A DNA stretch of 64,000 bases, taken from NCBI GenBank assembly GCA_035541875.1, contig DATKML010000029.1, positions 5,722 through 69,721 of the forward strand. Reading direction: 5' to 3'. This stretch comes from Candidatus Binataceae bacterium. GTDB taxonomy: Bacteria > Desulfobacterota > Binatia > Binatales > Binataceae. Of the stretch, positions 10,735 to 33,792 are shown one piece after another. The notes under the pieces are model-generated. The model was not told the origin of the DNA. It saw only the letters and a program-made list of their open reading frames with translations, and ran no database searches. Both the position numbers and the translations under genes were made by a program. The stretch's first letter is position 1. Every line of letters starts with the position of its first letter.

Positions 10735-10763
10735 TGGCTTGGCTTCTCGAGGCTGCGTTGAGG

Positions 10764-11975: not shown

Positions 11976-12444
11976 AACCGTCCGATTATCTCCCGATACG
12001 TGGTGTCTAGTTCCCAAGCATCGAATTACAAACTCAATCATCGGCAAGCATGTCTACAAGTTTAAACGAGTAGTAATGCTAGCTCTGATTCAATACTGCA
12101 CCTAATCTTAGGCGTTAGTCGTGCAGAATAGAACCCGAAAAGAGATTAGATGTTTAGAGATAAAAATTTAGGTTTAGGCATTTTTACAAAGCTTTCTTAG
12201 GCTTTGTTGGTATTAGTCAGCCGCTGATCGGCTTGGGGCGATGAAGAGCCACAGAATCTTTCGAGCGGGCTTAATTAAAAATGTGGGAGGCGAGCGATGA
12301 TCGTCGCCGTCGTGACCGCCTCGCACTTCAGGTTAAGGGGGAATCGGAGCCGTCGCGGCCCCTAACCCGGCAAGGCGGCCGTATCACGCGGTAACCCGAT
12401 AGAGCCTCGCACGAGGAGGGACTCCTGGAGCGAGGCTTTCGATC

Positions 12445-12475
12445 GGGGCGTTTCTCGCGAGCCGTTAAACGCCCC
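12445..12475. terminator. Hairpin GGGGCGTTT-ctcgcgagccgtt-AAACGCCCC, part of a three-hairpin GC-rich element at 12331-12476
   Basis: Perfect 9-bp stem just 3' of the 12495..13124 gene on the minus strand; see finding. Confidence 0.4.
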
Positions 12476-12494
12476 TGAAATTGGGGAGCCTCTC

Positions 12495-13124
12495 TCAGTG
12501 GGAGGTCTGGTTGACCTGGACTTTGTCGACGGCGAAGTCGGCGCAGCTCGAGAATTTTGGGCAGCTGCTCAGGCTAAAGACCACGCCCGTGATATTGGCG
12601 GCGGTGCTATCGAGCACGCCGATATAGATAGGATCCCCTGCTGTATCGCTCTTTTCGGTAAAGCTCTTCAGCACCTTGCCGTTCTGACGGGCTTGTATCT
12701 GTGCGGTGAACTGGCCGGGAAGATCGGCTTTGATGAGCGCCCCAGCCCCAAAGACGGGGGTTGCGAAAGTGAGGGTTAGGGGTCCATTGCCACCGTTGGC
12801 GTTATCCGAGGTCCAAAGCAGCGTATCGCCTGCGGTGAAGCCGGTTCCCCAGCTGCAAGGTGTTGCGGTACAGACCACCGAGGTCAGGCTGTTACTGCCT
12901 TTGAGTGCGACACTGACGCCATTGTTCAGCGCTGTATTTGCGGAGAACGACGCATTCAACACGGTTGCGTCAGCACCGAGCTGCGACCAATCGATCGAGT
13001 CGTCCGACTTCTGATTCGTTTGGTCTGTGATGAGCGTGAGCGTATCGGCGCGAGCGCTCGAGTTGAGCAGCACCGCGAGAGTCAGTCCCAGAAGCCAGAG
13101 GAATATGCGTTTGCCGTTGTTCAT
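12495..13124 (-). CDS. Small secreted protein (209 aa) consisting only of the conserved Cys-containing N-domain found at the N-terminus of the giant 7129..10734 protein
   Basis: Signal peptide MNNGKRIFLWLLGLTLAVLLNSSARA, then [16 protein letters not shown]...[56 protein letters not shown]...ITGVVFSLSSCPKFSSCADFAVDK, collinear with residues ~40-220 of the giant protein. Confidence 0.75.
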   Translation of the reverse strand: MNNGKRIFLWLLGLTLAVLLNSSARADTLTLITDQTNQKSDDSIDWSQLGADATVLNASFSANTALNNGVSVALKGSNSLTSVVCTATPCSWGTGFTAGDTLLWTSDNANGGNGPLTLTFATPVFGAGALIKADLPGQFTAQIQARQNGKVLKSFTEKSDTAGDPIYIGVLDSTAANITGVVFSLSSCPKFSSCADFAVDKVQVNQTSH

Positions 13125-13156
13125 GGTTCGATGCTCGTTGTGCTCGATTCCGAGGC

Positions 13157-14413
13157 CTAGCAGATCGGGCCGGCGTCAGTGCCAAAAGAGCCGCTATCAG
13201 AGAAAAGCCCTCCGGCAGCCATCGAGGGGTTCTGGCGATAGAACCACGAGAAGAACGCCAACTCCTGCACATCGTAGGTGAAGCCATTCATCACGATTGA
13301 AGGAAAGTTCGAACCACTAAGCGGATCGCCGACTTCGAGATTACCCTGGCAGCTACCGATCGTTTGGCCGAACCCTCCCCAGAGCGGAGCTGCATTGTTT
13401 GCAGTGCTCTTAACGCTGGCGGAAGGAACCGGATCGTCCAGCCACTCACCAATCTCATGTGAAGTCGAGGTGAGATCGACGCCGGAGCTGGGATCCCACA
13501 AGCCGGTAGTATCGAGATCCGCCGCGGCATAGGTCTGGACCTTGGCGAGACTCCCGAGCGCGCCATGGTAGCCGAGGATGCAGCAGTTTTGCGTAGGATC
13601 ATTCCGAACAAAGGGGAAAGACATTACGACATTGTGTGTCATGAAGAGCACAAACGAGGTCGGTCCGACGCCACTCTTCGCCAGCTTGGGAATCTGGGTT
13701 TTGGTCACGGCCTTGTCGAAGGTCGCGAAGTCGATAATCGCGGTCTCTTCGTGGTTGCAGGTGTTCGAAAAGGTGCCGTGAACGCCCTTTGTAGAGGGTA
13801 CGGAGATCGTTATAGGGGAGGCCATCGTGACGTTAAACAGCGTGTGATACCGATCGCCGGTTTTGCCGACGTTGCTCAGCATTCCTCCCGATGAGTTGTA
13901 GAAGTTGGCGCGCTGGAATGCATCGATGTACTGAGTAATTCCGATGAACTGTCCATTAATCGTGTAGTTTGCATCGTTAAACAGCGGCGATGCTTGCATC
14001 ACATCGACCGGGGTCTTGGTACTGCTCAGGCAAGCCGAGTCGATCTGGGTTGGGTCGAAGGTTGTGCCATCGGATAATCGGATAATTGTGGGAACCACAA
14101 AGACCTGGATGGTCGTCGTGCGCATCCCACCAGCCAACGGACTGCGTCCTACCATCAGCCCCTGATAGGTCTTCCCATCGATCGGTGAGACGATCGAATA
14201 GTGCCACATCGGGATAGTGCCCTTGACGGCGGTGGCGGTTCGCACATCGTCGATCGTCATACCCTCGAGCGGCTTCACGGCGTAGAACTTTTGAGGGCGT
14301 TTGGCGTGGGTAAAAGTGAAGGCCATCGCCCCCGACGCCGTCACGAGAAACGTGACAACCGCGGCCGCGATAAGAATAAGCGCGACGCTCCCTTTGAATG
14401 CAGCCTTGTGCAT
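13157..14413 (-). CDS. Secreted ~418-aa protein, paralog B of the SHE[VI]GEWxDDP family
   Basis: Signal/TM segment MHKAAFKGSVALILIAAAVVTFLVTASGAMA; AGGAAA RBS 10 nt upstream; SHEIGEWLDDP motif; 33-nt spacer to the downstream N-domain gene. Confidence 0.75.
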   Translation of the reverse strand: MHKAAFKGSVALILIAAAVVTFLVTASGAMAFTFTHAKRPQKFYAVKPLEGMTIDDVRTATAVKGTIPMWHYSIVSPIDGKTYQGLMVGRSPLAGGMRTTTIQVFVVPTIIRLSDGTTFDPTQIDSACLSSTKTPVDVMQASPLFNDANYTINGQFIGITQYIDAFQRANFYNSSGGMLSNVGKTGDRYHTLFNVTMASPITISVPSTKGVHGTFSNTCNHEETAIIDFATFDKAVTKTQIPKLAKSGVGPTSFVLFMTHNVVMSFPFVRNDPTQNCCILGYHGALGSLAKVQTYAAADLDTTGLWDPSSGVDLTSTSHEIGEWLDDPVPSASVKSTANNAAPLWGGFGQTIGSCQGNLEVGDPLSGSNFPSIVMNGFTYDVQELAFFSWFYRQNPSMAAGGLFSDSGSFGTDAGPIC

Positions 14414-14667: not shown

Positions 14668-17600
14668 TTATTTGGCCGTCCCCTTGAGAGTTACCGAGAC
14701 GCTTCCGTTGAGCACAGGACCTGAGCCATAGCTGAACGGATAGGTCAGGGTCTCAGGTGTCACCGGCCCGGACGGCCCATCTGGTTGGAAAGCCACCTGC
14801 ATCGTGCACTTTTTGCTCGCTGCCGGAGGTGGTCCTAACACGGCGTTGGTGCACTGATCGGCGCCGTGGACTAACACGAAGTTCGTCAGTGAGCCAGGAG
14901 CTCCTACAGTTATCGTCGCTCCCGACGTATTCGTGATCGTGACCGTCTTCGGCTTGCTCAAGGTGTTGATTGCGGTCGCCGGAAAGCTCAGGGTTTTGGG
15001 CGCGCTGACGGTCGGCGCGATACCAGTGCCACCCAGGCTGACCTGCAGTGGACCCGCTCCGTTGTAACTAATCGTGAGGTTGCCGCTCACAGACGGGCTG
15101 CTCACCGCGTTCGGCGCGAACGCTACCCCAATTTTGCACGATCGCTTGAGCGATAATGTGCTCGTACAGGTGTTCGACGCTATCACGAACTGCGAGATCG
15201 GCGCCGCCGAGTTCACGCCGGTTATATTCGCGTCGACCTTGCCACTGTTGATGATGGTCACCAGTTTTGGTTTCCCGGTCAGACTTGCGGTCACTTTGCC
15301 GAAGTCGATCTTGGTCGGCGACACTTTCAACACCGCAGGCGAAGGCACACCGGTCGGCGTCGCAGTTGGTGTGGCAGTTGCCGTCGCTTTTGACGTGCTG
15401 GTCGCCGTAGCCGTTGGAGTGGCTGTGCGCGTGGCCGCAACGGTCGGCGTTGCCGTGGCTGTCGGGGTCGCGGTTCGCGTCGGCGTCGCGCCCGAGGTCG
15501 CAGTGGCCGTCGCGGTTGCGGTCGGCAGGCCTGTCACGCCCGGTGTCGGGCATGGCGATGAATCGGTGCTCGTCGGATTGAGTACCGTCAGGAATGCATT
15601 GGACGACGCGTTGGCATCTGCGTTGTTGCTCTTCTGAAAGCCCGTCGTAGTCGTCGGAAAATCGGTCGAGAAGGTGAGCCCGGCGATGACCATATTGCCG
15701 TTCGGGTCCAGCTTTCCACCGGACGCAACATCGAGTTCACCCGAGCCACCAAGCAAACTGGAGTACAACAGTTGGTTTTTCGAAGTACTCAACTCCGCGG
15801 CAAAACCAGTAATAGGGATGTTGTACTGAAGCGTCCCGAGAACAGGAAGGTTAACGTCGAACGGAAAGCCGCTGGTGTTGTTCGTCTTGAAGCAAGCGTT
15901 GGCGGAGAGCGGAAAGGTTGATCCGGTTGAAGCAGCGCTGGCCGTGGCCCCAACGAAGTACACGTTACCACCGACAACTTGGAGGTCCGTCACTACGTCG
16001 CCAAAGCCGACTCCACCCGTGCACGGCGCCGGTGCCGTTATCTTATAACCGGTTCCGCCGAAGTAGGTGGAGTACAGGAACTGCCCAACGCCCGGGGCTA
16101 AACTCGGGTCGATTTCGGTGAGGAAGCCAGTCGTGGCGGGTGCTCCCGAGGTAACAGCGGCTTGGTTGGTCGATTGGAAAACGGGCATGACAGATCCAGG
16201 TACAGGGAAATTGCCTGTCGAAGCGGTGAATCCGGCCAGCCAGATTTTGTTGGAGCTATCGACCGCGACTGAGGTAGCGACATCGCCGACCGCGAAGAGA
16301 TTAACTTTGCTCCCCAGACAACTGACTAATCCCTGACTGCCGTTACCACCCTCGTAGGTCGCGTAAAGTAGTGAGGCGGCCCCGCTGGCACTCGGATTGA
16401 ACTCGGTGACGAAGGCGTTGCTGGTCTTGTTGACCTTACCGTTGTAGTTAGGCTGCGCCGCATTTTTTGTTGTCAGCCCGGTCAGGGAGTAAGTTGCGCC
16501 GGCGATATACCCATTACCATTGGCATCGACCGCTATCCCTATTCCCGACTCGGAGTTAGTGCCGTTACCATTACCGCCATAAAGTGTTGCGTAGTCCAGC
16601 GACTTGCCATCCTCGTGGACCACGAGAAAAGTTGCCTGACTCTTTCCACTTGTGGCCAAGTTGGTCGATTGGAATGCGCTCGCTGTTGTGGGAAAGCCTG
16701 TGGTGCTGTCGCTTTGTGTGCTGCCTGCAACATAAGCTTTACAAGCCGCTCCAACTCCACACCCGGAGGGGAATAGAGCCACGCGTGATTCGGTGGCGTT
16801 ATTTTTGCCGGGGACAAAGCACGAGTAGACCAAGCCACTGCCGTCGGGTTTGAGCTTGATAACGAACCCATTGTTCGTCGCCGCTGAGCTTTGGTTCATG
16901 CTGCTTCCCCACGCACCACACAGTGATGAAGGTGGACCCGGAAAATCCGATGGGGAGTAGGTTTGCCCGACAACGAAAGCGTTACCTCCGGCGTCGACCG
17001 CGATGCCGAAAGCAAGGTCGCCGTCGCCGCTGCCGACCGAACTCGTATCACCACTGCCGCCGAAGTAGGTCGAGTATACTAGGGATGCTGCCCCGGATTT
17101 CGAGTAATCGAATTTGCTAACGAAAGAATTCGGATTCGAAGAGGCTGCCGCGTTTTGGCTGGTTTGGAGAACGCCGGTGCTAGTTGGAAAATCCGTGGAA
17201 TAAGCGACGCCGGTCACCCACGCGTGGTTGGCGTTATCTATCGCGACGTCAGAGCCGACGTCAGCCACAGTTAGGGCAGCACCTCCGGTAACGCCCGCAA
17301 ATTGCTCAAGGTTTACGGTGCCGGTGATATCGCCGGTACCTCCGATATAGCTCGAATAGACCAGCTCTACGCCGGGATCGATTACGAGGGTGCGGGTGCG
17401 ATCATAGGCGGCTAGCTGAAGGCCGATCTCGGTGGTGGAGGCTTTTTTCCGCATCGCGAACTTGCCGTCGATCGGATCGCGGGTACCGTCGGCGCGGGTC
17501 TGGTAAATCACGGGATTGCGGATCATCAGGCTGCCGGCAACCGCTGCCACGTGGATATTGCCGTCGCTGTCGACGTTGGTGGTGCCATCGCCGTCGATTA

Positions 17601-18237
17601 TCAACTTGATTTTTGAGACGTCGGCTCCCGGCTTCGCGACAATGTCGTACTCGAGCTTGTCGGGTGTGCCGTAATAAACGACATCAACTCCCGGATAGAC
17701 CTCTTCCAGTTTAACTTTGCCGAAAGTGGGAATACTACGATGGTACTTGGTCGGATCGGCGCCGATCAGGTAGTTGACCCGCGCCTGGAGCGGTTCGAGG
17801 GGGGCGTACTTCGGATGAGCGTTGCCGCCTGCGAAACGCACCCGGATATTCGATTCAACGAGTCTGTCTTCGGGCTTCTGCTGTCCTGTAATCGAATAAA
17901 ATTGTGGTCCCTTGTGGATTGTGCCACCGACCATCGAGACCAGAGTTCCCTGATCACCAAGGAACACCGTGGAACGTGGTGTTCGCGAGAGGTAGTGGAC
18001 GCTCGGGTCGGATTGGCCGTCGTTGCGCTCGAAGTAGAGCGGCAGTGCGGCAAACTTCGCTATCGCCTCGGTCCGGCTCATCGTATTGTGATCGAGCGGA
18101 TTACCGACGGACGGCTGCGACGCTCCGGCCACACCGCGCGAATGGATAAAGGTTCCTAGGGCGATAGTGACGACTATGGCCGAAGCAAAAGTCAGCTTCC
18201 TGCGACGCAGGGTCGAGGTGACAGTAGAGAAAAGCAT
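14668..18237 (-). CDS. Giant secreted SBBP (beta-propeller) repeat protein with a T/A/P linker and two C-terminal choice-of-anchor-D-like domains
   Basis: 1189 aa; signal/TM N-terminus. Repeated YSTYFGGSGD..GIAVDAGGNAFVVG..S.DFP-type units (SBBP repeat, PF06739-like). The C-terminal ~225 aa align with the C-terminus of the 7129..10734 protein (KVSPTKIDFGKVT..., CTSTLSLKRSCKIGVAF, KKCTMQVAFQP). Confidence 0.8.
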   Translation of the reverse strand: MLFSTVTSTLRRRKLTFASAIVVTIALGTFIHSRGVAGASQPSVGNPLDHNTMSRTEAIAKFAALPLYFERNDGQSDPSVHYLSRTPRSTVFLGDQGTLVSMVGGTIHKGPQFYSITGQQKPEDRLVESNIRVRFAGGNAHPKYAPLEPLQARVNYLIGADPTKYHRSIPTFGKVKLEEVYPGVDVVYYGTPDKLEYDIVAKPGADVSKIKLIIDGDGTTNVDSDGNIHVAAVAGSLMIRNPVIYQTRADGTRDPIDGKFAMRKKASTTEIGLQLAAYDRTRTLVIDPGVELVYSSYIGGTGDITGTVNLEQFAGVTGGAALTVADVGSDVAIDNANHAWVTGVAYSTDFPTSTGVLQTSQNAAASSNPNSFVSKFDYSKSGAASLVYSTYFGGSGDTSSVGSGDGDLAFGIAVDAGGNAFVVGQTYSPSDFPGPPSSLCGAWGSSMNQSSAATNNGFVIKLKPDGSGLVYSCFVPGKNNATESRVALFPSGCGVGAACKAYVAGSTQSDSTTGFPTTASAFQSTNLATSGKSQATFLVVHEDGKSLDYATLYGGNGNGTNSESGIGIAVDANGNGYIAGATYSLTGLTTKNAAQPNYNGKVNKTSNAFVTEFNPSASGAASLLYATYEGGNGSQGLVSCLGSKVNLFAVGDVATSVAVDSSNKIWLAGFTASTGNFPVPGSVMPVFQSTNQAAVTSGAPATTGFLTEIDPSLAPGVGQFLYSTYFGGTGYKITAPAPCTGGVGFGDVVTDLQVVGGNVYFVGATASAASTGSTFPLSANACFKTNNTSGFPFDVNLPVLGTLQYNIPITGFAAELSTSKNQLLYSSLLGGSGELDVASGGKLDPNGNMVIAGLTFSTDFPTTTTGFQKSNNADANASSNAFLTVLNPTSTDSSPCPTPGVTGLPTATATATATSGATPTRTATPTATATPTVAATRTATPTATATSTSKATATATPTATPTGVPSPAVLKVSPTKIDFGKVTASLTGKPKLVTIINSGKVDANITGVNSAAPISQFVIASNTCTSTLSLKRSCKIGVAFAPNAVSSPSVSGNLTISYNGAGPLQVSLGGTGIAPTVSAPKTLSFPATAINTLSKPKTVTITNTSGATITVGAPGSLTNFVLVHGADQCTNAVLGPPPAASKKCTMQVAFQPDGPSGPVTPETLTYPFSYGSGPVLNGSVSVTLKGTAK
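15343..15570. repeat. GC-rich tandem repeats encoding a T/A/P linker in the SBBP protein
   Basis: Protein [64 protein letters not shown]; the antisense frame gives the spurious ORF 15074..15637. Confidence 0.65.
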
Positions 18238-24634: not shown

Positions 24635-25045
24635 TTAGCTGGGGAACTGTACTGTCGCCGTTCCGATAACGAGGCGTTCCGATTCTTCGCTTTCGATCCA
24701 CACATCCATCTCGACCGTTTTGTCGGCATCGCTCTTATGGGTGACGAAGCCGTGCAGTGAGATCGTATGGTCGGGCTGGACGGGTTGCCGATAGGTGACC
24801 CCGAGCCGGCTCATCTTCGCGCTGCTTGATCCGATCCAATCGGTAACCAGCTTACTCAGGATCGCGAGGCTCATGTTGCCGGGCGTGATCATCCCGGGCA
24901 GGCCTTCCTTGCGCGCGGCTTCATCGTCGGTGAAGCGAGGCGCCCACATGCCCATCGCCTTGGCGTAGGTGCGGACCTGATCCTTGCTGAGGTACATCTC
25001 TTCGGGGCCGAGAGAATCGCCGATATTTACGTCTGCGTAATTCAT
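24635..25045 (-). CDS. MaoC-like dehydratase (hotdog fold)
   Basis: 136 aa; C-terminal hotdog core ...HTISLHGFVTHKSDADKTVEMDVWIESEE. Confidence 0.7.
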   Translation of the reverse strand: MNYADVNIGDSLGPEEMYLSKDQVRTYAKAMGMWAPRFTDDEAARKEGLPGMITPGNMSLAILSKLVTDWIGSSSAKMSRLGVTYRQPVQPDHTISLHGFVTHKSDADKTVEMDVWIESEESERLVIGTATVQFPS

Positions 25046-25245
25046 TTGGTTCGTCCGATGGTTATTGGCGCTGAAGGTTAGCGGATTCTGGCAGAAATTT
25101 CAGCACTAAGGGCGCGGAACCGGTACCGGCATCACGAGTGCTACAGCTCGCGATGCTGTCCGAGATTCTTCGTTGCGCTCGCAGTTGCTCGCTACCCTCA
25201 GAATGACAAAAAGGCTGCCGCTTCGAAAAGAGTAAAACACGGCCA

Positions 25246-25692
25246 CTAAGGGCGGTTCATGAAGCGATGGTCGACGTGGGCGACCACTTCGCCCTTCTGA
25301 TTCGTGAGTGTCGAGCGGATCACGACAAAGACCATCGAGCCACTACGGCCGGTCTTTTCGTAGATCTCCTTAACGTGGGAACTCAGCGTGATCGAATCAC
25401 CGGGGCGGATCGGTGCGACGAACTCGACATCTTTGCCCGCATCGAAGCCCGCTTTGCCGAAGCGTGGTACATGCTCGAAAAAGTGACGCCCGTTGCGAAA
25501 GGTAACCGCGAACGAAGGCGGTGCTATCAGTCCCCCGTAGGGTCCGCTCTTGGCGGCCTCGGGATCGACGTGAAGCGGATTCGTATCGCCTATGCATTCG
25601 TTGAATTGGCGAATCATGTCGGCGTCGACAGGAACCGGATCGGTCGTTTCGAAGACGCGGCCGATAAGTGCAGGATCGTAGTTTACAGCCAT
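25246..25692 (-). CDS. MaoC-family dehydratase, N-terminal half type (FAS1-like hotdog)
   Basis: 148 aa; MAVNYDPALIGRVFETTDPVPVDADMIRQFNECIGDTNPLHVDPEAAK is the hotdog N-domain signature; pairs with 24635..25045. Confidence 0.7.
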   Translation of the reverse strand: MAVNYDPALIGRVFETTDPVPVDADMIRQFNECIGDTNPLHVDPEAAKSGPYGGLIAPPSFAVTFRNGRHFFEHVPRFGKAGFDAGKDVEFVAPIRPGDSITLSSHVKEIYEKTGRSGSMVFVVIRSTLTNQKGEVVAHVDHRFMNRP

Positions 25693-25696
25693 CGCG

Positions 25697-26380
25697 TTAC
25701 TTTACCTCAACGGCCACGGCATGCGGGACAGGTTTGCGCCGCGGGCGAAAATCAACCGGTTCGTAGGCGCCGGTCTTAAGTTCACGAACGAGATCATCCA
25801 TCGAGCGGATCGTTGCGTCGAAACGCGTCGCGCAAAGCCCGATGAGACTTACGAGATGGCTATCGGAGCCGCCAATCGCGCCGTAGCCATAATGCGCGAC
25901 CAGCTCCTCGCTGCGTTCATCCTCGCCCTTGCGCGATCCACCGTTAAGCACCTCAACCGCGAGCACGTTTTCGAGCGGCGGCTTGCTCTTGTAGTGCTCA
26001 CAGAGGCCGACGTTGGGGCGACCCGGATGGCATGGAATCGCGACGCCGCCCATCCGGGCGACTTCGTCGATCACTTCCTGCGCGGGCAGTCGCACGTTGG
26101 CGAAATCGAAGCGACGGGTCATCTCGTCGGTGACGCCGAAGACCAAGATATGGCCATAATCGGTTTCGACCTCGGAGGCTTTCAGCACGATGATGCCGAA
26201 TTTGTCTTCGAGCGCGCGATAGTCGCCGTCTTTGTTGAACTGCCGATGCTCGGTCAGGACGATACCGTCGACCGGCCGCTCGGCCTTACGCAATTTAAGC
26301 CAGTTGAGGTAGGCCTCAAGCGGGGCGCGGCTATCCTCAGAAGCTTCGCTATGGCTGTGCAGATCGAGAACAGTGCTCAC
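25697..26380 (-). CDS. PHP (polymerase/histidinol phosphatase) domain metal-dependent phosphoesterase
   Basis: VLDLHSHSEASEDS N-terminal His motif; ...GGSDSHL C-terminal motif. Confidence 0.75.
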   Translation of the reverse strand: MSTVLDLHSHSEASEDSRAPLEAYLNWLKLRKAERPVDGIVLTEHRQFNKDGDYRALEDKFGIIVLKASEVETDYGHILVFGVTDEMTRRFDFANVRLPAQEVIDEVARMGGVAIPCHPGRPNVGLCEHYKSKPPLENVLAVEVLNGGSRKGEDERSEELVAHYGYGAIGGSDSHLVSLIGLCATRFDATIRSMDDLVRELKTGAYEPVDFRPRRKPVPHAVAVEVK

Positions 26381-26668
26381 TAAGGGGGTACCCTCTCTAT
26401 CTAACGTTATCGGCGGACTCGCCGCGACTCCGCTAGGTCCTCGCCGGAGAAGCTAATGAATCGCGCCAGTAATTGCCGCAATTCCATCTCTCAACGGGCA
26501 AGCCTCATTGTAACCAAACGGGGCCGATAGTCGAGGAGAACCGACCGTCCGATTGCTCGAGCTGAATTTCTCCCCAAATTCCGACCTTTAACCTTGTTTG
26601 CTGAGCTTTTGGTTGCAACGGGATGGAATTTTGACTATCCGCTATGTTTCTAACCAGCAAGGCGCATT

Positions 26669-27550
26669 TTGATACCAAGAGACGCACAAACTGAGTCACC
26701 CGAATTGCCTGAACCGACCCCTTTCTGGAGTGTGCGGGAGTGTCGCCAACTAGTCGACTTGGACGGCGCGGTTCTCTATCGCGTGGTCCGGGAGGGCTCG
26801 CGCTCAGATGGTCCAATTGTAGTCTTCTTCAACAGCTTCGGAGCTGATCATGAGGCCAAATGGAGGGCCGAGGTCGCTGCCGGGCGTCATTTTGCCGAAA
26901 AAGGCTTCACGACCGTCTCGTACCATCCGAGAGGACACGGCGATTCGAGCGGGAACTTCGCGGAACTGACCTTCGAAGATATGGTTGCGGACGGGCTTGC
27001 GGTAGCTGATTTTGCGGCTACTCTGCCAGGTGCCAGCGGGATTATCGCGGTCGGAATCCGCTTTGGAGCCTTGATCGCAGCCGAAATAATCCGCCGCCGC
27101 GGCGACGTAGTTGGCCTTGCGCTCTGGGAGCCGATCCATCGGCCGCGGGATTATTTTCTCGAACTGATGCGCCATCAGGCGATTGCCGAGATGGCGCGGG
27201 GGCGGAAAACCGCATCATCGGAGAGCGAACTGATTGAGCGCTTGAGCGTGGAAGCGAGTATTGCGGTTCCCGGGCAGGAGCTTTATCGGTCGTTGACGAC
27301 GAGTGCGTTAGAGCTCGATCTGAGGGTGATGCTCGAGGCTTGGAGTGGCCCGACGTTGCTCGCCCAGTTTCGACGTCGCAAAGAACTCAGTCGCGACAAC
27401 ACATCGTTGGCCAAAGCGATGAAAGGTCGCGGTGCTAGTGTCACCTTGGAAGTTCTGCAGGAACCCGAGGGGAGCACGGGCAACGAAGCTTGGCTGTTCA
27501 CCGACTCGTTAGCTGCAAGCACGAAGATCTGGCTCGATGAACTGGCCTGA
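26669..27550 (+). CDS. Alpha/beta hydrolase-fold protein 1 of a coupled pair; nucleophile-elbow position reads G-I-R-F-G (Arg where Ser is expected)
   Basis: VVFFNSFGADHE...YHPRGHGDSSG...IIAVGIRFGALIAAE. The stop overlaps the start of the next gene by 14 nt. Confidence 0.7.
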   Translation: MIPRDAQTESPELPEPTPFWSVRECRQLVDLDGAVLYRVVREGSRSDGPIVVFFNSFGADHEAKWRAEVAAGRHFAEKGFTTVSYHPRGHGDSSGNFAELTFEDMVADGLAVADFAATLPGASGIIAVGIRFGALIAAEIIRRRGDVVGLALWEPIHRPRDYFLELMRHQAIAEMARGRKTASSESELIERLSVEASIAVPGQELYRSLTTSALELDLRVMLEAWSGPTLLAQFRRRKELSRDNTSLAKAMKGRGASVTLEVLQEPEGSTGNEAWLFTDSLAASTKIWLDELA

Positions 27551-28406
27551 GACCTCGTCGACTCTGGCTCGTGCTCGCGCCGAAGAGCCGTTTGAGTTCG
27601 CCGCCCGCGATGGAATCCTGCGCGGCATCTTCACGCCACCCGCGCCTGAGAGTCGCGACGAGGGTATCTGTATCGTTTTCCCCGGCCATCCGCGCTTCGG
27701 CGTCCAACGGTTTCCGGTTCTGGCCGCGAGGCAACTAGCCGCGGAAGGCTTCAGCGCTCTCCGCTTCGACCTACACGGGCACGGCGAAAGCTCCGGAGCG
27801 ACGGCAATCGCGACGCGTGAGGAGCCCTATGGCGACGATGTTCGATGCGCCGTCGATGCGATGTGGGCGCGCGGCCATCGCCAATTCTTGTTGGTCGGCT
27901 ACTGCTTCGATGCGTTGAGCGCCTTCTCGGCTTTCGGAGACCATCCGGAGTCGATTCGTGGATTGCTGATAGCGGCGCCTCCGGTACTGGAGCGGTCCTC
28001 TATTGGTAAAAGTGTGACCCAGTCGGATAACCCCGGAGGCCTCCTGCAGCGAGTGCGCACCGCGCTGGGGCGCCGATCCGAGGGAGATGCGCGAGAAGGT
28101 TACGCCTCCTTCGCAACCGAGGTATCGACACAGTTGCCGAAGATCGCCGAGCGCTTCGCGGCGGGTTTCGATGAATTGGTGCGATCGTCGGCACAGGCGC
28201 TCTTCCTCTACGGAAAAAACGACCCGCTCTATTTAGAGTTCCAGGTTGTCGAGCGCCAACTGCTCGAGCCGCTTGCTCCGAAAGACAAAGCCCGGATAAC
28301 CGTCGAGGTATCGCCGGAACTCACGCACGCATGGGAAGGTCGACGCCTGCTCGAACGCACGATCGCGTGGGCTCGCGGGTTTCGATCTTCGAAACAGCCT
28401 CGATGA
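27537..28406 (+). CDS. Alpha/beta hydrolase-fold protein 2 of the pair; nucleophile-elbow position reads G-Y-C-F-D (Cys)
   Basis: ICIVFPGHPRF...FDLHGHGESSG...FLLVGYCFDALSAF. The TGA stop overlaps the ATG of the ligase (ATGA at 28403-28406). Confidence 0.7.
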   Translation: MNWPETSSTLARARAEEPFEFAARDGILRGIFTPPAPESRDEGICIVFPGHPRFGVQRFPVLAARQLAAEGFSALRFDLHGHGESSGATAIATREEPYGDDVRCAVDAMWARGHRQFLLVGYCFDALSAFSAFGDHPESIRGLLIAAPPVLERSSIGKSVTQSDNPGGLLQRVRTALGRRSEGDAREGYASFATEVSTQLPKIAERFAAGFDELVRSSAQALFLYGKNDPLYLEFQVVERQLLEPLAPKDKARITVEVSPELTHAWEGRRLLERTIAWARGFRSSKQPR

Positions 28407-29998
28407 AAGCCCAGTTAGTTCCAGACGTTCTGATGGCTGCCGTTGAGCAGTATCCCGCCCGTACCGCGATCGTGATGGGCGAGCGTGTAGTTACCTATGC
28501 CGAATTCGACGCGATGGCGACGAAGGTCGCGCGATCGCTCGTCCGCTACGGGGTCAGGCCCGGTGATCGCGTGGCACTCTGGATGCCCAAATCGATCGAG
28601 GCGATCGCGGCGATATGGGGAATCATGCGTGCGGGCGCGGCTTACGTCCCGCTGGACGCGACCGCTCCGGTTGCTCGTATCGCCGGAATTATCTGCGATT
28701 GTGCGGCGAGTGGCTTGATAACCTCGGCCCGAAACCTCGCGATGCTGACGCCGATCCTCGCCGACGAGAATCCGCTGAGGGGTGTTTGGTTGCCCGAGGC
28801 GACCGCGTCGGAACTTCAGTGCGCAGCTCCGCTGATTACGGCCGATGAACTTGAAAGCGAAGACGCGCAGAGCTTTTCTGTCGCGCTCAAGCCTGGCTCC
28901 CTCGCGAATATCCAGTACACGTCGGGATCCACGGGTGCCCCAAAGGGTGTGATGGTGCCTCATCACGCGTTGCTCGAACAGATGAATTGGACGCAGAACG
29001 TGTTTCATCTGACACCTGACGATCGCCTGAGCGGTCATACGCCGCTGCACTCAGCGATGGCGAGTTTCGATATCTTCATGAGCGTGTTGGCGGGAGCGGC
29101 GCTCTATCCCGTGCCGCCGGCGCTCGCACTTTTCCCGCGTGAAGTGGCCAAGCTCTGGAGTGCAGAGAAGCTCTCCGTATGGTTTGTCGTGCCGAGCGTG
29201 CTCTCGATGATGATCGATCAGGGAGGCTTCGACGGTAACGATTTTTCCTCCCTTCGGATCGTGGGTTTCGGAGGTGAGCGCGCAACCTACGACCGTATCC
29301 GCGAGATCGCTAATCGCCTTCCCCACGTCCGTCTTTTTACCAACTACAGTTGCACCGAGGCGAAAATACGTATCCTCCGAGAGCTGCCGCGGCCATTTGA
29401 AGAGATCGATCTTCGCCGCATCGGCCCTATCTCGGGGGCTTTCGAATTATTCGTCCTTGACGACGACGATCGTCCCGTCGGACCGGGCGAAGTCGGCAAG
29501 CTCTGGATAGTCGGATCGGTCCTGATGCTTGGCTACTGGGGTCGCCCCGAGGAGACGGCGCGGGCGCTGAGGGAAGTCGAGCCGGAGCCCGGTCGCAAGG
29601 TAAAGGGTTACTGCACCGGCGATCTCGTGCGGCGGCTTGAAGATGGCGGGCTCGAACTGGTTGGCCGAGCCGATCAGCAGATCAAGATTCGCGGAAATCG
29701 CGTTGAACCGAGCGAGATCGAGGCTGCTCTCACGCGTCGTCCCGAGGTCCAGGAGGCGCTTGTGTTTCCACAGCAGGACGCGAAGCTCGGGCTGCGCGTG
29801 GTTGCTGTCGTTGTCGCTAAGGACGATGCGTCTATCGATCAAGCCATCTTGCGTCGGCACTGTGCGGAACTGCTGCCCGCCTACATGGTGCCGGCCGCCA
29901 TCTACGTCCGCTCAGCCATCCCACGATTGAGCAACGGCAAAGTGGACCGGCGTGCTGCTCTGATCGATATTGAGGACGTTCAGACCGATGCAACTTAA
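28403..29998 (+). CDS. Stand-alone adenylation-domain protein (AMP-binding, NRPS A-domain-like; amino acid/acyl-carrier ligase)
   Basis: YTSGSTGAPKGV (A3), GDLVRRLEDGGLELVGRADQQIKIRGNRVEPSEIE (A8) and NGKVDRRAL (A10) core motifs; no condensation or thioesterase domain. Confidence 0.85.
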   Translation: MKAQLVPDVLMAAVEQYPARTAIVMGERVVTYAEFDAMATKVARSLVRYGVRPGDRVALWMPKSIEAIAAIWGIMRAGAAYVPLDATAPVARIAGIICDCAASGLITSARNLAMLTPILADENPLRGVWLPEATASELQCAAPLITADELESEDAQSFSVALKPGSLANIQYTSGSTGAPKGVMVPHHALLEQMNWTQNVFHLTPDDRLSGHTPLHSAMASFDIFMSVLAGAALYPVPPALALFPREVAKLWSAEKLSVWFVVPSVLSMMIDQGGFDGNDFSSLRIVGFGGERATYDRIREIANRLPHVRLFTNYSCTEAKIRILRELPRPFEEIDLRRIGPISGAFELFVLDDDDRPVGPGEVGKLWIVGSVLMLGYWGRPEETARALREVEPEPGRKVKGYCTGDLVRRLEDGGLELVGRADQQIKIRGNRVEPSEIEAALTRRPEVQEALVFPQQDAKLGLRVVAVVVAKDDASIDQAILRRHCAELLPAYMVPAAIYVRSAIPRLSNGKVDRRAALIDIEDVQTDAT

Positions 29999-30254
29999 CG
30001 CGGTTCAAGAAGAGATACGGAACTTTCTCCTGAGCAGCGTTCCGGCTGCGGCGCAGCTTCAGGATTTATCGATAGACGATCCACTCCTGGAGCTTGGCGT
30101 GTTCGATTCGTCCGCGATGGTCGAGACGGTGGTCTTCTGCGAACAGCATTTCGATATCGAGATACCGAGCGAAGAACTCAAACCGGGATCTTTCGCTTCT
30201 ATCCGTGCGATAAGCGAGATGGTGCTGCGCGCGCTGGATCGTCTCAGCGCATAA
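29988..30254 (+). CDS. Acyl/peptidyl carrier protein
   Basis: LGVFDSSAMVETVVFCEQHFDIEIP is a carrier-protein phosphopantetheine-site-like helix II motif. The start overlaps the ligase stop by 11 nt (alternative TTG at 29970). Confidence 0.65.
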   Translation: MQLNAVQEEIRNFLLSSVPAAAQLQDLSIDDPLLELGVFDSSAMVETVVFCEQHFDIEIPSEELKPGSFASIRAISEMVLRALDRLSA

Positions 30255-31032
30255 GCCCGGCCACGAGGCGATCGACAATTCCGCTCGGAGCCGCGGTTGG
30301 AACACTCTGCGGGATCCGCTCAATCAGGGCTTCACTTATCGCCACCAGATGCTCAATGGTCGCCCAATTGGGCTGAGCGACCAGACCCGCCTCGGCGTGG
30401 AAGCCGAATGGATCGCGCCAAAAAAGTGTCGAATGAACCGCAACGCCGCTGGTGGGCCAATTTATGATGCTATCGGCCAAGGCTGGATCGACCGGCTTCT
30501 TCTGGCTTTTGTCCGGCATCGTCAAGACGCGATAAGCCTTATCGAACGCCGCGTTGCCGCTCGCAACTTCCTGCGCCTCTTCAAAAAACTTCAAGACACC
30601 GGCAGCCGTTCCGCTGAAGGCAGCTATCTTTGAAGGGCTGTGCGAAGAAAGCGCTACGTTCTTCCCACCTATCGAACCGGAAACCCGCAAGCGCGTATCG
30701 ATACTGTCGCGCAGCGCTATAGCGACGTTAGTTTCCCCGGCCAATGAGGGAAAGCGCTGATGGAGACCGACGGACCATCCTCGGTTACTCGCGCCAGAGC
30801 CTTTGGTCGTAAGGATCCACTTGATACCGCTTGCAGTTTGTCCCTCGATACGAACGTCGGTCGGACTCCCGGTCCATTGACGTTTGTGGAACGTCCATCG
30901 GCGCTGTTCAGCATGCTGCCGTATTTCGCGGACGAAGCGCCGCTGACTCCGCGTCAGGAGTCTATAGAGGCCGACAGGAAGGCCTATCACGACCAGAAAC
31001 ATCCCCCATACGAGCGGTAGTGTGTACGGCAT
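30244..31032 (-). CDS. Hypothetical N-terminally membrane-anchored protein (262 aa)
   Basis: N-terminal TM segment LPLVWGMFLVVIGLPVGLY; no recognisable domain. Confidence 0.5.
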   Translation of the reverse strand: MPYTLPLVWGMFLVVIGLPVGLYRLLTRSQRRFVREIRQHAEQRRWTFHKRQWTGSPTDVRIEGQTASGIKWILTTKGSGASNRGWSVGLHQRFPSLAGETNVAIALRDSIDTRLRVSGSIGGKNVALSSHSPSKIAAFSGTAAGVLKFFEEAQEVASGNAAFDKAYRVLTMPDKSQKKPVDPALADSIINWPTSGVAVHSTLFWRDPFGFHAEAGLVAQPNWATIEHLVAISEALIERIPQSVPTAAPSGIVDRLVAGLMR

Positions 31033-31129: not shown

Positions 31130-32071
31130 TTAGCGCCAATCGTCGAGTAGATAGACGCCGGGACGGTTGTAACCCGGATCATGATCGCGGTGCATCGCTA
31201 CGCCAAGGATGTCGGTGCGGAACCGACGCGCGACCATCGTGCGATAAGCTTCGTGGCGGGCCGTATTTACTCCGGCAACAAAGCGCTTGACGCCGCGACT
31301 GGCGCCGAATTGGCAGGATGCATCGAGGAGCCGCTCGAAGTTACTCGCTGCATCCACTCCCGGTCGCACTGCGGCAAACTTCGCAAAGCACACGCCGCCG
31401 CCGGCCTCGGTCCTTGCGCCAACGTGGCAGACTGCGAAGGCTACGATCTTGGAGTTGTCTGTCAGCAGGATTGTATCGCCGAGCCGTTGCTTATCGACCG
31501 ATCCAATATCGATAGCGACGTCGAGGCCCTCATAGATCTGATTCGTCAGTTCGCGGCAAGCCGCAATCATCTCTTGTTTTTGGCTCGCTGGCAGCTTGGA
31601 AAGCTCGATGTAAGTTGCCCCTTGTTGGGAAGAGCTGGTGGCCAGCGACATCACCGGAGTCAGAAAGCGGGACCAGAAGCCAAACTTCTGATAGAGAGCC
31701 GCATGCTTGGGACTGTAGCTGAAGGTGAACAGACCGGTATGGCGACACCCCCACTTCGCGAAGAGATCCATCGTTGGTTCGAGCAGTCGCTGTGCGACCT
31801 TTTGCTCCCAGAATCGAGGATCGACGGAAAGCGGACCGAAGAAACCGACGCTTCCCCAGTTAGTAGCGAAGTTTGAACCGACCAGCTTGCCATCGCCGGT
31901 CGCGACGAAAGCCGCACTAGGATCGGCTTTGAAACGCGTTCGGGCAACATCGCTATCACCGAACATGGCCATCGGATCCGGCAATCCGATAAACGTTCCG
32001 AAGGCGAGACGGAGGATACGATCGACTTCGACAAGATCCTCCGGCTGCATCGGGCGAGTGGCGATTTCCAT
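31130..32071 (-). CDS. GNAT family N-acetyltransferase with two GNAT lobes
   Basis: 313 aa; ...GKLVGSNFATNWGSVGFFGPLSVDPRFWEQKVAQRLL... (acetyl-CoA pocket-like) in the N-half, and a second GNAT-like half with RGVKRFVAGVNTARHEAYR. Confidence 0.65.
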   Translation of the reverse strand: MEIATRPMQPEDLVEVDRILRLAFGTFIGLPDPMAMFGDSDVARTRFKADPSAAFVATGDGKLVGSNFATNWGSVGFFGPLSVDPRFWEQKVAQRLLEPTMDLFAKWGCRHTGLFTFSYSPKHAALYQKFGFWSRFLTPVMSLATSSSQQGATYIELSKLPASQKQEMIAACRELTNQIYEGLDVAIDIGSVDKQRLGDTILLTDNSKIVAFAVCHVGARTEAGGGVCFAKFAAVRPGVDAASNFERLLDASCQFGASRGVKRFVAGVNTARHEAYRTMVARRFRTDILGVAMHRDHDPGYNRPGVYLLDDWR

Positions 32072-32193: not shown

Positions 32194-32622
32194 TTAGGCG
32201 GCGGGGCGGAATTTCACGAGCGTCACCTCGGGTGTGACGTCATCGAAGACTACCTCGACGCGCTGATCGATTTTTACTTGCGCCGGCGGACAATCGACGA
32301 TGTTCGTGAGTATCCTCAGGCCCTCGTCTATTTCGACCCACGCGAGGACATAGGGCAGTGCATCGCGGAAACCGGCGGCGCCGTTCTGATTCGTTACGGT
32401 GAAAGTGTAGATCTTGCCCTTGCCGCTGCACTTCACCCATTCAGTGTTGGAAGACATGCAGTTGGTGCATAGCGCGCGCGGATGGTGGCGCAGATCGCCG
32501 CAATCGCGGCACTTCTGGATGTATAGTTCGTGACGCTTGGCGGCCTCCCACCAGGGGCGGTTTTCTTCGTCGATATGAGGGAGCGGTTTCGCGTAACGCT
32601 TCTTATCTTTTTCGTCAGCCAT
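32194..32622 (-). CDS. Zn-ribbon/OB-fold protein (DUF35 family), partner of SCP2-type thiolase
   Basis: CRDCGDLRHHPRALCTNCMSSN (rubredoxin-like Zn ribbon) plus a C-terminal OB fold; sits immediately upstream of the thiolase-like gene. Confidence 0.8.
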   Translation of the reverse strand: MADEKDKKRYAKPLPHIDEENRPWWEAAKRHELYIQKCRDCGDLRHHPRALCTNCMSSNTEWVKCSGKGKIYTFTVTNQNGAAGFRDALPYVLAWVEIDEGLRILTNIVDCPPAQVKIDQRVEVVFDDVTPEVTLVKFRPAA

Positions 32623-32631
32623 GGCTGTTAC

Positions 32632-33792
32632 TCACTGGTTGCTGAGAATCAAAGTTGCGCCGGAGTGACGGGTGCCGAGTTCGCCGCCGGTGCCGTGGCA
32701 TAGGGCGATCTGGCAATCCTTGACCTGACGCGGACCACATTCGCCGCGGAGCTGCTTCACCGCCTCGATTACGAGGAACATCCCGCGCATCCCCGGATGA
32801 TTCGATGACAGTCCACCACCGTCGGTGTTGATTGGGAGTTCGCCGTCGTAGCGAAGGCGTCCGCCGGTCACGAAGGAGCCACCCTCGCCACGTTTGCAGA
32901 AGCCGAGATTTTCGAGCGTCGTCAGGACGGTGATCGTGAACGAATCGTAGATCATCGCCATGTCGATATCTTTATGAGTGACGCCGGCGCGCTCGAACGC
33001 GAGCTTGCCCGACTGATGGGCCGCGATTTCGAGGAAATCGCGCTGTCCGCGAGCCGCATGACGCGCGGTCTCGCCGGTGCCGAGAATATACGCTGGCTTT
33101 TTCTTTAGATCCTTCGCGCGTTCCGCAGAGGTGACGACCAACGCGCCACCGCCGTCGCTGATGATGCAGCAATCGAGCAGATGAAGCGGCGACGAGATGA
33201 TACGCGAGGAGAGCACGTCATCGACCGTAATCGGATCGCGGTACTTGGCGGCCGGATTCATCGACGCATGATGGCGCATCGTCACCGCGATCTCGGCCAG
33301 TTGCTCTGACGTGGTGCCATATTCATGCATGTGCCGCTGCGCGACCAACCCGTAAGCACCCACCGTGGTCGGGCCGTAAGGAAATTCGTATTGATGGCAG
33401 GGGTCACCACCACCCAGTCCACCGCCAGTGCCGATCGCGAACCGGCCCGACGCAGCGGTTGAGCCGTAAACGATCACGGCTACATCGCAGAGGCCGGCGT
33501 GAATCGCGGCTGCGGCGTGGGCAGTGTGGGCTACGAAGGACGAGCCGCCCATGTTGGTGCCGTCCAGGTAATTGGGGGTGAGGTTCAAGTAGTCGCAGAG
33601 ACCGACGATACCCATCATGCTCATCCCGATACCGGCCGAGAAGATGCCGTCGACGTCTTTGATCGTGAGACCACAATCGGCGAGCGCACCCCGGATGCTC
33701 TCGGCCATGATCTGATGCATGCTCTTGTCCGGGGCGAAACGTGTTGGATGTTCGTAAACGCCGGCGACGGCGGTTTTGCGGCTGAGACTCAT
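32632..33792 (-). CDS. Thiolase-like lipid-transfer protein (SCP2/Ltp-type, non-acetylating)
   Basis: 386 aa; thiolase fold (GIGMSMMGIVGLCDYLN...; C-terminal CHGTGGELGTRH). Canonical DUF35+Ltp pairing. Confidence 0.85.
   Translation of the reverse strand: MSLSRKTAVAGVYEHPTRFAPDKSMHQIMAESIRGALADCGLTIKDVDGIFSAGIGMSMMGIVGLCDYLNLTPNYLDGTNMGGSSFVAHTAHAAAAIHAGLCDVAVIVYGSTAASGRFAIGTGGGLGGGDPCHQYEFPYGPTTVGAYGLVAQRHMHEYGTTSEQLAEIAVTMRHHASMNPAAKYRDPITVDDVLSSRIISSPLHLLDCCIISDGGGALVVTSAERAKDLKKKPAYILGTGETARHAARGQRDFLEIAAHQSGKLAFERAGVTHKDIDMAMIYDSFTITVLTTLENLGFCKRGEGGSFVTGGRLRYDGELPINTDGGGLSSNHPGMRGMFLVIEAVKQLRGECGPRQVKDCQIALCHGTGGELGTRHSGATLILSNQ

Follow-up and report, generated by a model that had tools for sequence, protein, structure and literature searches.

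What might a bacterium do with two alpha/beta-fold hydrolases that carry Arg and Cys in place of the catalytic Ser, when both are encoded together with an adenylating ligase and a carrier protein? The question is raised by a four-gene cassette at positions 26669-30254 of a 64,000-nucleotide stretch from Candidatus Binataceae bacterium (Binatia; GenBank assembly GCA_035541875.1, contig DATKML010000029.1, positions 5,722 to 69,721 of the forward strand), which was analysed as a whole and is hereafter called the window. Our analysis indicates that the cassette is real and widespread and that it probably passes an activated acyl group to an acceptor. It belongs to a large family that is known but uncharacterised, and for which we found no published biochemistry. 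The cassette consists of the following features.

26381-26704, no strand assigned: intergenic region between a divergent PHP-domain gene and hydA, presumed to hold the operon promoter
26705-27550, + strand: hydA, alpha/beta-hydrolase-fold protein of 281 amino acids; codon of Arg119 at 27059-27061; the open reading frame (ORF) opens at TTG 26669
27537-28406, + strand: hydB, alpha/beta-hydrolase-fold protein of 289 amino acids; codons of Cys123 at 27903-27905, Asp229 at 28221-28223 and His264 at 28326-28328
28403-29998, + strand: adenylating ligase, stand-alone, of the nonribosomal peptide synthetase (NRPS) type, 531 amino acids
29988-30254, + strand: carrier protein of 88 amino acids; codon of the phosphopantetheine Ser41, within the D-S motif, at 30108-30110

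A first-pass annotation of this DNA had described an operon of four overlapping genes with a stand-alone adenylation (A) domain and a carrier protein, and all of this was borne out when the junctions were read directly. At the hydA/hydB junction CTCGATGAACTGGCCTGA the hydB ATG (27537) lies ahead of the hydA TGA (27548-27550), which gives a 14-nucleotide overlap of sequence ATGAACTGGCCTGA. The ligase ATG (28403) and the hydB TGA (28404-28406) overlap by the 4 nucleotides ATGA (CGATGAAA), and the carrier-protein ATG (29988) and the ligase TAA (29996-29998) by 11 nucleotides (CCGATGCAACTTAA, overlap ATGCAACTTAA). An independent gene call on a Logan contig returned the identical four genes of 281, 289, 531 and 88 amino acids. 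The hydA reading frame on the + strand was likewise as annotated; the start given there (26669) is the first TTG of the ORF, while gene callers begin the gene at TTG 26705, and since a homologue with 78% identity has 293 amino acids either start may be correct. Genes of the opposite strand flank the cassette on both sides, no terminator-like sites were found on the + strand within the four genes, and no sigma-70 consensus was found on the + strand of 26381-26704. The third-position GC of the cassette genes matches that of one neighbouring gene.

Both HydA and HydB match the Pfam family Hydrolase_4. HMMER alignments place the GIRFG of HydA on the nucleophile Ser of solved hydrolases (GFSMG and GFSLG) and the GYCFD of HydB on the nucleophile-Ser motif GHSLG of a solved hydrolase, and in confident AlphaFold models of the pair (pLDDT, the predicted local distance difference test, of 85.5 and 91.2) Cys123 and Arg119 are found where strand 5 turns into the following helix. 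The replacement of the catalytic Ser that had been read from the letters is therefore confirmed. It is neither a sequencing error nor a chance substitution, since Arg119 is invariant in 76/76 HydA homologues and Cys123 in 120/120 HydB homologues. Neither is it a local oddity, as it had first been taken to be: among the best 150 cluster representatives found with a HydA profile the elbow residue is Arg in 146, Gly in 3 and Ser in 1, which marks it as a hallmark of a large family. HydB also keeps Asp229 in 93% and His264 in 96% of its homologues, and in the model these residues come after strands 7 and 8. By its residues HydB is a complete Cys-His-Asp enzyme (Cys123-Asp229-His264) and probably the catalytic subunit. 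HydA shares this fold and is itself conserved but has no triad, since in its homologues neither an Asp nor a His of the C-terminal half is conserved; it is probably a non-catalytic partner subunit. Sequence searches of both proteins against solved structures gave weak matches to generic esterases only, and Foldseek searches with both models found no specific functional relative. Because neither N-terminus is hydrophobic, the reaction of the pair would be cytoplasmic.

To which known proteins is this pair related? The first-pass annotation had likened the gene set to the quartet of ligase, carrier protein and two hydrolases next to exosortase-A loci (TIGR03098, TIGR03100 and TIGR03101), and the likeness proved correct. 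The best NCBIfam match of HydA is TIGR03101 (68.3 bits where the cut-off is 202.75, with positions 24-240 of the 266 in the profile covered) and that of HydB is TIGR03100 (54.3 against 168.45, with only the N-terminal half aligned), and TIGR03098 is the second-best match of the ligase (291.1 against 592.35). None of the three cut-offs for membership is reached. Our reference for a genuine locus of this type was L013, from a metagenome-assembled genome (MAG) of Burkholderiaceae, which lies above all three: its ligase scores 762.7 bits with TIGR03098, its hydrolase L013:2694-3503 scores 238.6 with TIGR03101, and P0218, a protein reached by profile search and named 'hydrolase 1, exosortase A system-associated' at NCBI, scores 341.9 with TIGR03100. 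The locus encodes the ligase, a GNAT protein, a carrier protein, the TIGR03101 hydrolase, a protein of 199 amino acids without family, P0218 and a polysaccharide-export protein. Hydrolase 2 of L013 reads ALRGG, with the Arg in the same alignment column as Arg119 of HydA, and hydrolase 1 (P0218) reads GLCDA and aligns this motif, an Asp and a His with GYCFD, Asp229 and His264 of HydB. HydA thus has the Arg elbow without a triad that we derived from this one genuine TIGR03101 member, and HydB has the features of TIGR03100, a Cys-Asp-His triad and an adjoining hydrolase-2 partner, with hydA directly upstream. Since the genuine locus carries them in the same columns, the Arg and Cys elbows are a hallmark of the known, uncharacterised families hydr2_PEP and hydr1_PEP.

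Membership in the exosortase-A set, by contrast with likeness to it, was not borne out. In Pfam scans of 39 neighbouring ORFs of at least 136 amino acids across the 64 kb, no exosortase, Wzx, Wzy, Wza, Wzc, exopolysaccharide (EPS) or PEP-CTERM genes were found, in agreement with the earlier remark that the window holds no exosortase. Because the scores lie far below the cut-offs and no exosortase, EPS or PEP-CTERM gene occurs in the 64 kb, we place the window cassette as a sister clade of the exosortase-A set and not as a member of it. In other genomes the cassette stands in unrelated neighbourhoods, which likewise do not support the proposed link to exosortase or EPS.

How widespread the arrangement is was asked by scanning one genome per GTDB species, for which a broad alignment was too divergent and another one was used, and by searching the resulting and further loci with hidden Markov models built for this analysis. 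The scan gave 54 species loci, all in MAGs, from Binatia (often labelled 'uncultured delta proteobacterium'), Eisenbacteria, Limnocylindria, Methylomirabilota, Verrucomicrobiia, several Actinomycetota and one Granulosicoccaceae. The cassette clade as such was met in MAGs only, with Binatia, Eisenbacteria, Chloroflexota and Actinomycetota among them. The genes hydA and hydB are adjacent in all 54 species loci and in further loci examined, and their usual company is a ligase and a carrier protein, often together with an acyl-CoA-dehydrogenase-like gene. The loci fall into four types, next to which two actinobacterial loci (L058 and L062) have a carrier protein beside the pair without a ligase.

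Type I: hydA-hydB-ligase-carrier protein; Binatia, including the window
Type II: hydA-hydB-acyl-CoA-dehydrogenase-like gene-ligase-carrier protein; about 25 loci, mainly Eisenbacteria
Type III: hydA-hydB pair alone; L011, L035, L040 and L047
Type IV: carrier protein-hydA-hydB-ligase; L061 and L065 (Solirubrobacteraceae)

The 14-nucleotide hydA/hydB overlap recurs at loci with unrelated neighbourhoods. Clustering of the neighbouring genes of 57 loci revealed lineage-specific synteny only, and the recurrent neighbours (HEAT-repeat proteins, an amino-acid kinase and proteins without family) gave no clue to an acceptor.

Beyond these genomes, the HydA profile found 1,709 of 1.84 billion cluster representatives (50% identity) at E<=1e-30 and 9,364 at E<=1e-10. 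The best 150 include 29 HydA-HydB fusions, 2 HydB-HydA fusions and 1 HydA-HydB-carrier protein; the last (P0357, 662 amino acids) is a natural triple fusion with an intact D-S motif. One fused protein (P0284, 621 amino acids) has a canonical Ser (GPSFGG) and not Arg in its HydA-type domain, which may be the ancestral state or a reversion. A tblastn search of plasmids and chromids returned 58 records with a HydB-type domain, of which 41 cover at least 80% of the query, and in the records examined the hydrolase is fused, with G-x-R-x-G in the N-terminal domain and G-x-C-x-G plus Asp and His in the C-terminal one. Such single-polypeptide HydA-HydB proteins occur in Cupriavidus, Azospirillum, Burkholderia, Mycetohabitans and Shinella. 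In Azospirillum lipoferum 4B (L008:2318-9906) and Mycetohabitans rhizoxinica (L068:2971-10969) the fused gene closes a six-gene cluster that is kept across alpha- and betaproteobacteria and encodes a carrier protein, a protein of the acyl-CoA-dehydrogenase family, an amino acid--[acyl carrier protein (ACP)] ligase resembling class-II aminoacyl-tRNA synthetases (aaRS; 522 bits against a cut-off of 357), DUF1839, a GH2/beta-mannosidase and the fused HydA-HydB. An amino acid--[ACP] ligase also lies about 10 kb upstream of the fused gene in Cupriavidus EM10 (L007, a 24.6-kb locus), where a Wzc kinase adjoins the fused gene. In Shinella a flippase is followed by the fused gene, one hypothetical protein, the carrier protein, an AMP-binding protein, a type III pyridoxal phosphate (PLP) enzyme and an ATP-grasp protein, all inside a glycosyltransferase-rich cluster, and in Burkholderia gladioli and Rhizobium the fused gene lies inside Wzx/Wza/Wzc/Wzy clusters. 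The pair thus travels with two unrelated loading enzymes, an ANL A domain in the window and most MAG loci and a class-II aaRS-like ligase.

The ligase of the window has the marks of an NRPS A domain. For this family (TIGR01733, PF00501 and PF13193) it exceeds the TIGR01733 cut-off (329.4 against 317.4 bits), and it has the Lys of position 517; its closest solved relatives are the NRPS A domains LgrA and CytC1 and the proline ligase PltF, and motifs A3, A7, A8 and A10 are intact. We read specificity codes by alignment to GrsA, after its reference sequence had been confirmed against 1AMU. The window ligase reads A-M-F-F-G-G-N-I-R-K at positions 235, 236, 239, 278, 299, 301, 322, 330, 331 and 517, with position 322 set by hand from the NYSCTE motif. 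Ala218 aligns with Asp235, both in HMMER alignments to the two LgrA A domains and in the alignments to GrsA, while Arg323 stands at position 331 and Lys513 aligns with Lys517. With Ala in place of the alpha-amino-binding Asp235 and Arg at position 331, the ligase is unlikely to take a standard alpha-amino acid as its substrate, and the attachment of an amino acid, which had been considered at first, is therefore unlikely here. Asp235 is missing across the Binatia-type cassettes in general, type I ligases reading [A/G/S]-M-F-[F/Y]-x-G-x-[L/I/V]-R-K with a few divergent exceptions. One economical guess would be that the window ligase directly activates an acid that bears no alpha-amino group. 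Asp235 is also lacking in A domains that take hydroxy and keto acids. One Binatia-type cassette (L016:9786-13074) has two tandem ligases, GMFFLGATRK and GTFRFSATRK, ahead of the carrier protein, which suggests that two different acids may be loaded. In plasmids, tblastn searches with the window ligase returned NRPS modules only and reached no XrtA (exosortase-A) loci.

All 20 ligases that adjoin a dehydrogenase-like gene read D-L-F-Y-L-A-L-V-C-K, one of them ending at a contig edge before Lys517, and the window ligase is 43% identical to a ligase from such a sister cassette. In the type II locus L005 the dehydrogenase-like protein is best matched by PigA (421 bits, cut-off 500) and then by RedW (405 bits, cut-off 650), which are dehydrogenases acting on prolyl groups bound to peptidyl carrier protein, both scores being below cut-off, and the ligase matches the solved proline ligase PltF at 1e-104. 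Type II cassettes would, on these matches, make pyrrole-2-carboxyl-S-carrier protein; a literature search did not confirm DLFYLALVCK as a proline or pyrrole code, so that the assignment is based on the dehydrogenase and PltF matches only.

The carrier protein clears the gathering threshold of PF00550 (27.0 against 20.8 bits), and its FDSS aligns with the LLDS of homologues, with Ser41 in the conserved D-S motif. In a profile match it weakly resembles the ACP of the ornithine-lipid system OlsHI, which has been described as a GH3-like enzyme pathway. This lead was dropped, as HydA, HydB and the ligase are without listed matches to ornithine-lipid families.

What, then, could the four genes do together? 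Gene order and coupling, residue conservation, the fusions and the co-occurrence with carrier-protein loading genes are direct observations. The coupled genes, the fusions and the company of two unrelated loading enzymes support the view that HydA and HydB form one unit with the carrier protein, both physically and in function. We propose, with about an even chance of being right, that the four genes form a self-contained module which delivers an acyl group by way of the carrier protein to an acceptor. With its motifs A3, A7, A8 and A10 intact, the ligase would adenylate a carboxylic acid, probably not a standard alpha-amino acid, and load it as a thioester onto the phosphopantetheine of Ser41. 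The acyl-carrier protein would dock on a putative HydA·HydB heterocomplex, as the genetics suggest, where Cys123 of HydB, activated by His264 and Asp229, could attack the thioester to form an acyl-S-Cys enzyme. From there the acyl group would move to a nucleophile. The likeliest in our view is a hydroxyl or an amine of an acceptor in the cytoplasm, which could be a glycan intermediate, a lipid-linked one or a small molecule. HydA would serve to bind an anionic portion of the acceptor, the phosphopantetheine or the carrier protein. In the dehydrogenase-containing cassettes the pair would act after a known type of acyl-S-carrier protein. For the proteobacterial and XrtA-linked relatives the acceptor is plausibly a glycan, which fits because the fused form lies in Wzx/Wzy/Wzc clusters and L013 ends at a Poly_export gene. 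The first-pass annotation had also thought that the two hydrolases might transfer acyl groups or act as scaffolds, a reading which we favour too. In its support stand the conserved Cys-Asp-His of HydB and the lack of a triad in HydA.

SyrC and CmaE are said to use an active-site Cys, in work attributed to Singh and to Strieter in 2007. That alpha/beta-fold enzymes can move acyl groups off carrier proteins is established for CouN7, CmaE and SyrC (PMC8748450). Several points nevertheless weigh against transfer in the present case. A Cys-His-Asp alpha/beta hydrolase can simply hydrolyse its substrate, and sequence cannot separate transfer from release. The closest structural neighbours of both models in Foldseek are ordinary esterases and lipases, e.g. 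feruloyl esterases. The code of the window ligase was matched to no nameable substrate, and among the 57 loci no acceptor gene is conserved beside the cassette, neighbours being common within sublineages only. The type III pairs (L011, L035, L040 and L047), which have flanks on both sides, have neither ligase nor carrier protein within 8-10 kb; they may be served by genes elsewhere or use another acyl donor. The pair at L011:9136-10942 has methylmalonyl-CoA-mutase-like and B12-binding genes as neighbours. Literature searches found no paper describing HydA/HydB-type proteins and nothing relevant on exosortase-associated hydrolases, the ligase code or the partners of amino acid:carrier protein ligases, and Haft 2006 does not mention these exosortase-associated genes.

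The main rival to transfer is release by a thioesterase, which we consider unlikely, if less so than the other alternatives. HydB would here hydrolyse the acyl-S-carrier protein and free a small acid (e.g. pyrrole-2-carboxylate in the sister cassettes), HydA would be a regulatory or stabilising partner, and the cassette would be a minimal pathway to a diffusible metabolite. The complete triad of HydB, the nearness of the fold to esterases and lipases and the self-contained cassette, with no conserved acceptor or glycan genes in the MAG lineages, are all in keeping with release. However, for hydrolysis a Cys in the place of Ser would be unnecessary, as would a conserved pseudo-enzyme partner that is translationally coupled or fused, the type II thioesterase family PF00975 is not matched by HydA or HydB at E<=0.01, and the proteobacterial relatives lie inside polysaccharide clusters.

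A clearly less probable reading is that of the first-pass annotation, in which the cassette would be an XrtA accessory set that decorates exopolysaccharide or a PEP-CTERM protein. The three nearest NCBIfam families and the elbows, which equal those of the genuine XrtA locus, are what can be said for it; the scores far under cut-off, the lack of exosortase, EPS or PEP-CTERM genes within 64 kb, flanks that vary across genomes, and a gene order and ligase type unlike those of L013 make it improbable. Least probable of all is a PHA (polyhydroxyalkanoate)-synthase-like polymerase or cyclo-oligomerase, in which HydB would condense carrier-borne hydroxy-acyl or other monomers to an oligo- or polyester with HydA as second subunit: it would account for the Cys-Asp-His triad, the obligate two-protein pair and a ligase without Asp235, but neither protein matches PhaC_N or another PHA synthase signature in Pfam at E<=0.01, no phasin or depolymerase is present, and the aromatic acyl group that sister cassettes appear to make would be incapable of polymerising.

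The remainder of the window adds context to the cassette. Its neighbours encode transporters, lipid and CoA metabolism, a sulfatase, GcpE, DNA polymerase III tau and similar functions. Genes of the lipid and steroid-side-chain type lie on either side of the cassette (24635-26380 and 32194-33792, - strand), with two MaoC-like hydratase subunits and the PHP-domain protein upstream, and a ChsH2-like OB/zinc-ribbon protein and a thiolase-like protein downstream. Five secreted or unassigned proteins and the gene facing the carrier protein are as follows.

7129-10773, - strand: secreted Laminin_G_3 protein of 1214 amino acids, ending in ...TLKGSDK
10764-12047 and 13157-14413, - strand: two proteins of about 420 amino acids without Pfam match, with a common C-terminus that includes ELAF.SWF.RQ.PS
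12495-13124, - strand: secreted protein of 209 amino acids with an N-terminal motif common to the 1214-amino-acid protein
14668-18237, - strand: secreted protein of 1189 amino acids with DUF7948 and a HYDIN/VesB-like Ig domain, ending in ...TLKGTAK; previously noted as a 'choice-of-anchor D' protein
30244-31032, - strand: protein of 262 amino acids with one N-terminal hydrophobic helix and no Pfam match, convergent with the carrier-protein gene with an 11-nucleotide 3' overlap

The region 7129-14413 holds two paralogous gene pairs, in which the genes for the 1214- and 209-amino-acid proteins, whose common N-terminal motif starts D-x-[VI], each lie downstream (5' on the - strand) of one gene for a protein of about 420 amino acids. 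No PEP-CTERM tail is present on any of the four proteins of these pairs. The ends of the 1189- and 1214-amino-acid proteins are much alike and are no PEP-CTERM tails. The 262-amino-acid gene is kept on the near-identical contig L001 and was not found beside the cassette in other lineages. A GNAT gene encoding 313 amino acids lies at 31130-32071 in the window, and a GNAT gene also adjoins the ligase of L013; we found no evidence that the two are related.

A broader and distinctly more doubtful possibility is that HydA·HydB represents a new class of two-subunit alpha/beta-fold acyltransferase, built of a Cys-His-Asp subunit and an Arg-elbow pseudo-enzyme, which acylates glycans or other cellular acceptors. 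Among the groups transferred could be pyrrole-2-carboxyl where the cassette has a dehydrogenase and, in the window, a non-amino acid. The pair might also be the missing partner that acts downstream both of the aaRS-like amino acid:[carrier protein] ligases and of the exosortase-A accessory genes. In any case the pair of Cys and Arg hydrolases is not confined to one genome, given the about 1,700 clusters at E<=1e-30. It links three gene sets that lack an assigned role (the stand-alone cassettes, the accessory genes of exosortase A and the aaRS-like carrier-protein ligases) through one shared, testable enzyme pair. To our knowledge, the aaRS-like ligases have had no biological role assigned to them since they were described in 2010, and the six-gene alpha- and betaproteobacterial cluster gives them a genetic context. 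With their fused versions, cultivable Azospirillum, Mycetohabitans, Shinella and Burkholderia are amenable to genetics and could be used to search for the acceptor. A protein with an invariant Arg at the nucleophile site that is tied to a paralogue with Cys would, in addition, be a good example from which to learn how a pseudo-enzyme is paired with an active enzyme.

Compared with known systems, HydB resembles the PHA synthase PhaC in its Cys-Asp-His triad, alpha/beta-hydrolase fold and thioester substrate; it is much smaller and has no PhaC_N, and its proposed substrate is bound to a carrier protein whereas that of PhaC is bound to CoA. With the trio of the PltF/PltE/PltL type (RedM/RedW, PigI/PigA) the approximately 25 sister cassettes share a ligase, an acyl-CoA-dehydrogenase-like protein and a carrier protein. 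The window differs from it in having no dehydrogenase and in a ligase code that has changed from DLFYLALVCK to AMFFGGNIRK with loss of the amine-binding Asp. The chemistry proposed here is like that of CouN7/CloN7, CmaE and SyrC, from carrier thioester via a covalent enzyme intermediate to the acceptor (PMC8748450). These are single proteins in large NRPS or aminocoumarin pathways, without an Arg-elbow partner, and are likened to HydA/HydB by chemistry and not by sequence, the suggested analogy being drawn only from fold, Cys and the genetic association with a carrier protein. The XrtA set (TIGR03098, carrier protein, TIGR03101 and TIGR03100, 'hypothetical equivalogs' in NCBIfam) comprises the same four protein types as the window, and in L013 as in the window hydrolase 2 precedes hydrolase 1. 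The window genes overlap in the order hydA-hydB-ligase-ACP, while in L013 the ligase is divergent, the GNAT and 199-amino-acid genes are interleaved and Poly_export adjoins; the L013 ligase also keeps Asp235 (FDAG), which that of the window has lost. The uncharacterised fused HydA-HydB of Azospirillum, Mycetohabitans, Cupriavidus, Burkholderia, Shinella and Rhizobium differs from the window pair in being a single polypeptide within Wzx/Wzy polysaccharide clusters and in its loader, which is often the aaRS-like amino acid--[ACP] ligase with the acyl-CoA-dehydrogenase-family protein, DUF1839 and GH2, or otherwise an AMP-binding protein with a type III PLP enzyme and an ATP-grasp protein. It has the same elbows, Asp and His as the window pair and, like it, is encoded near a carrier protein and a loading enzyme.

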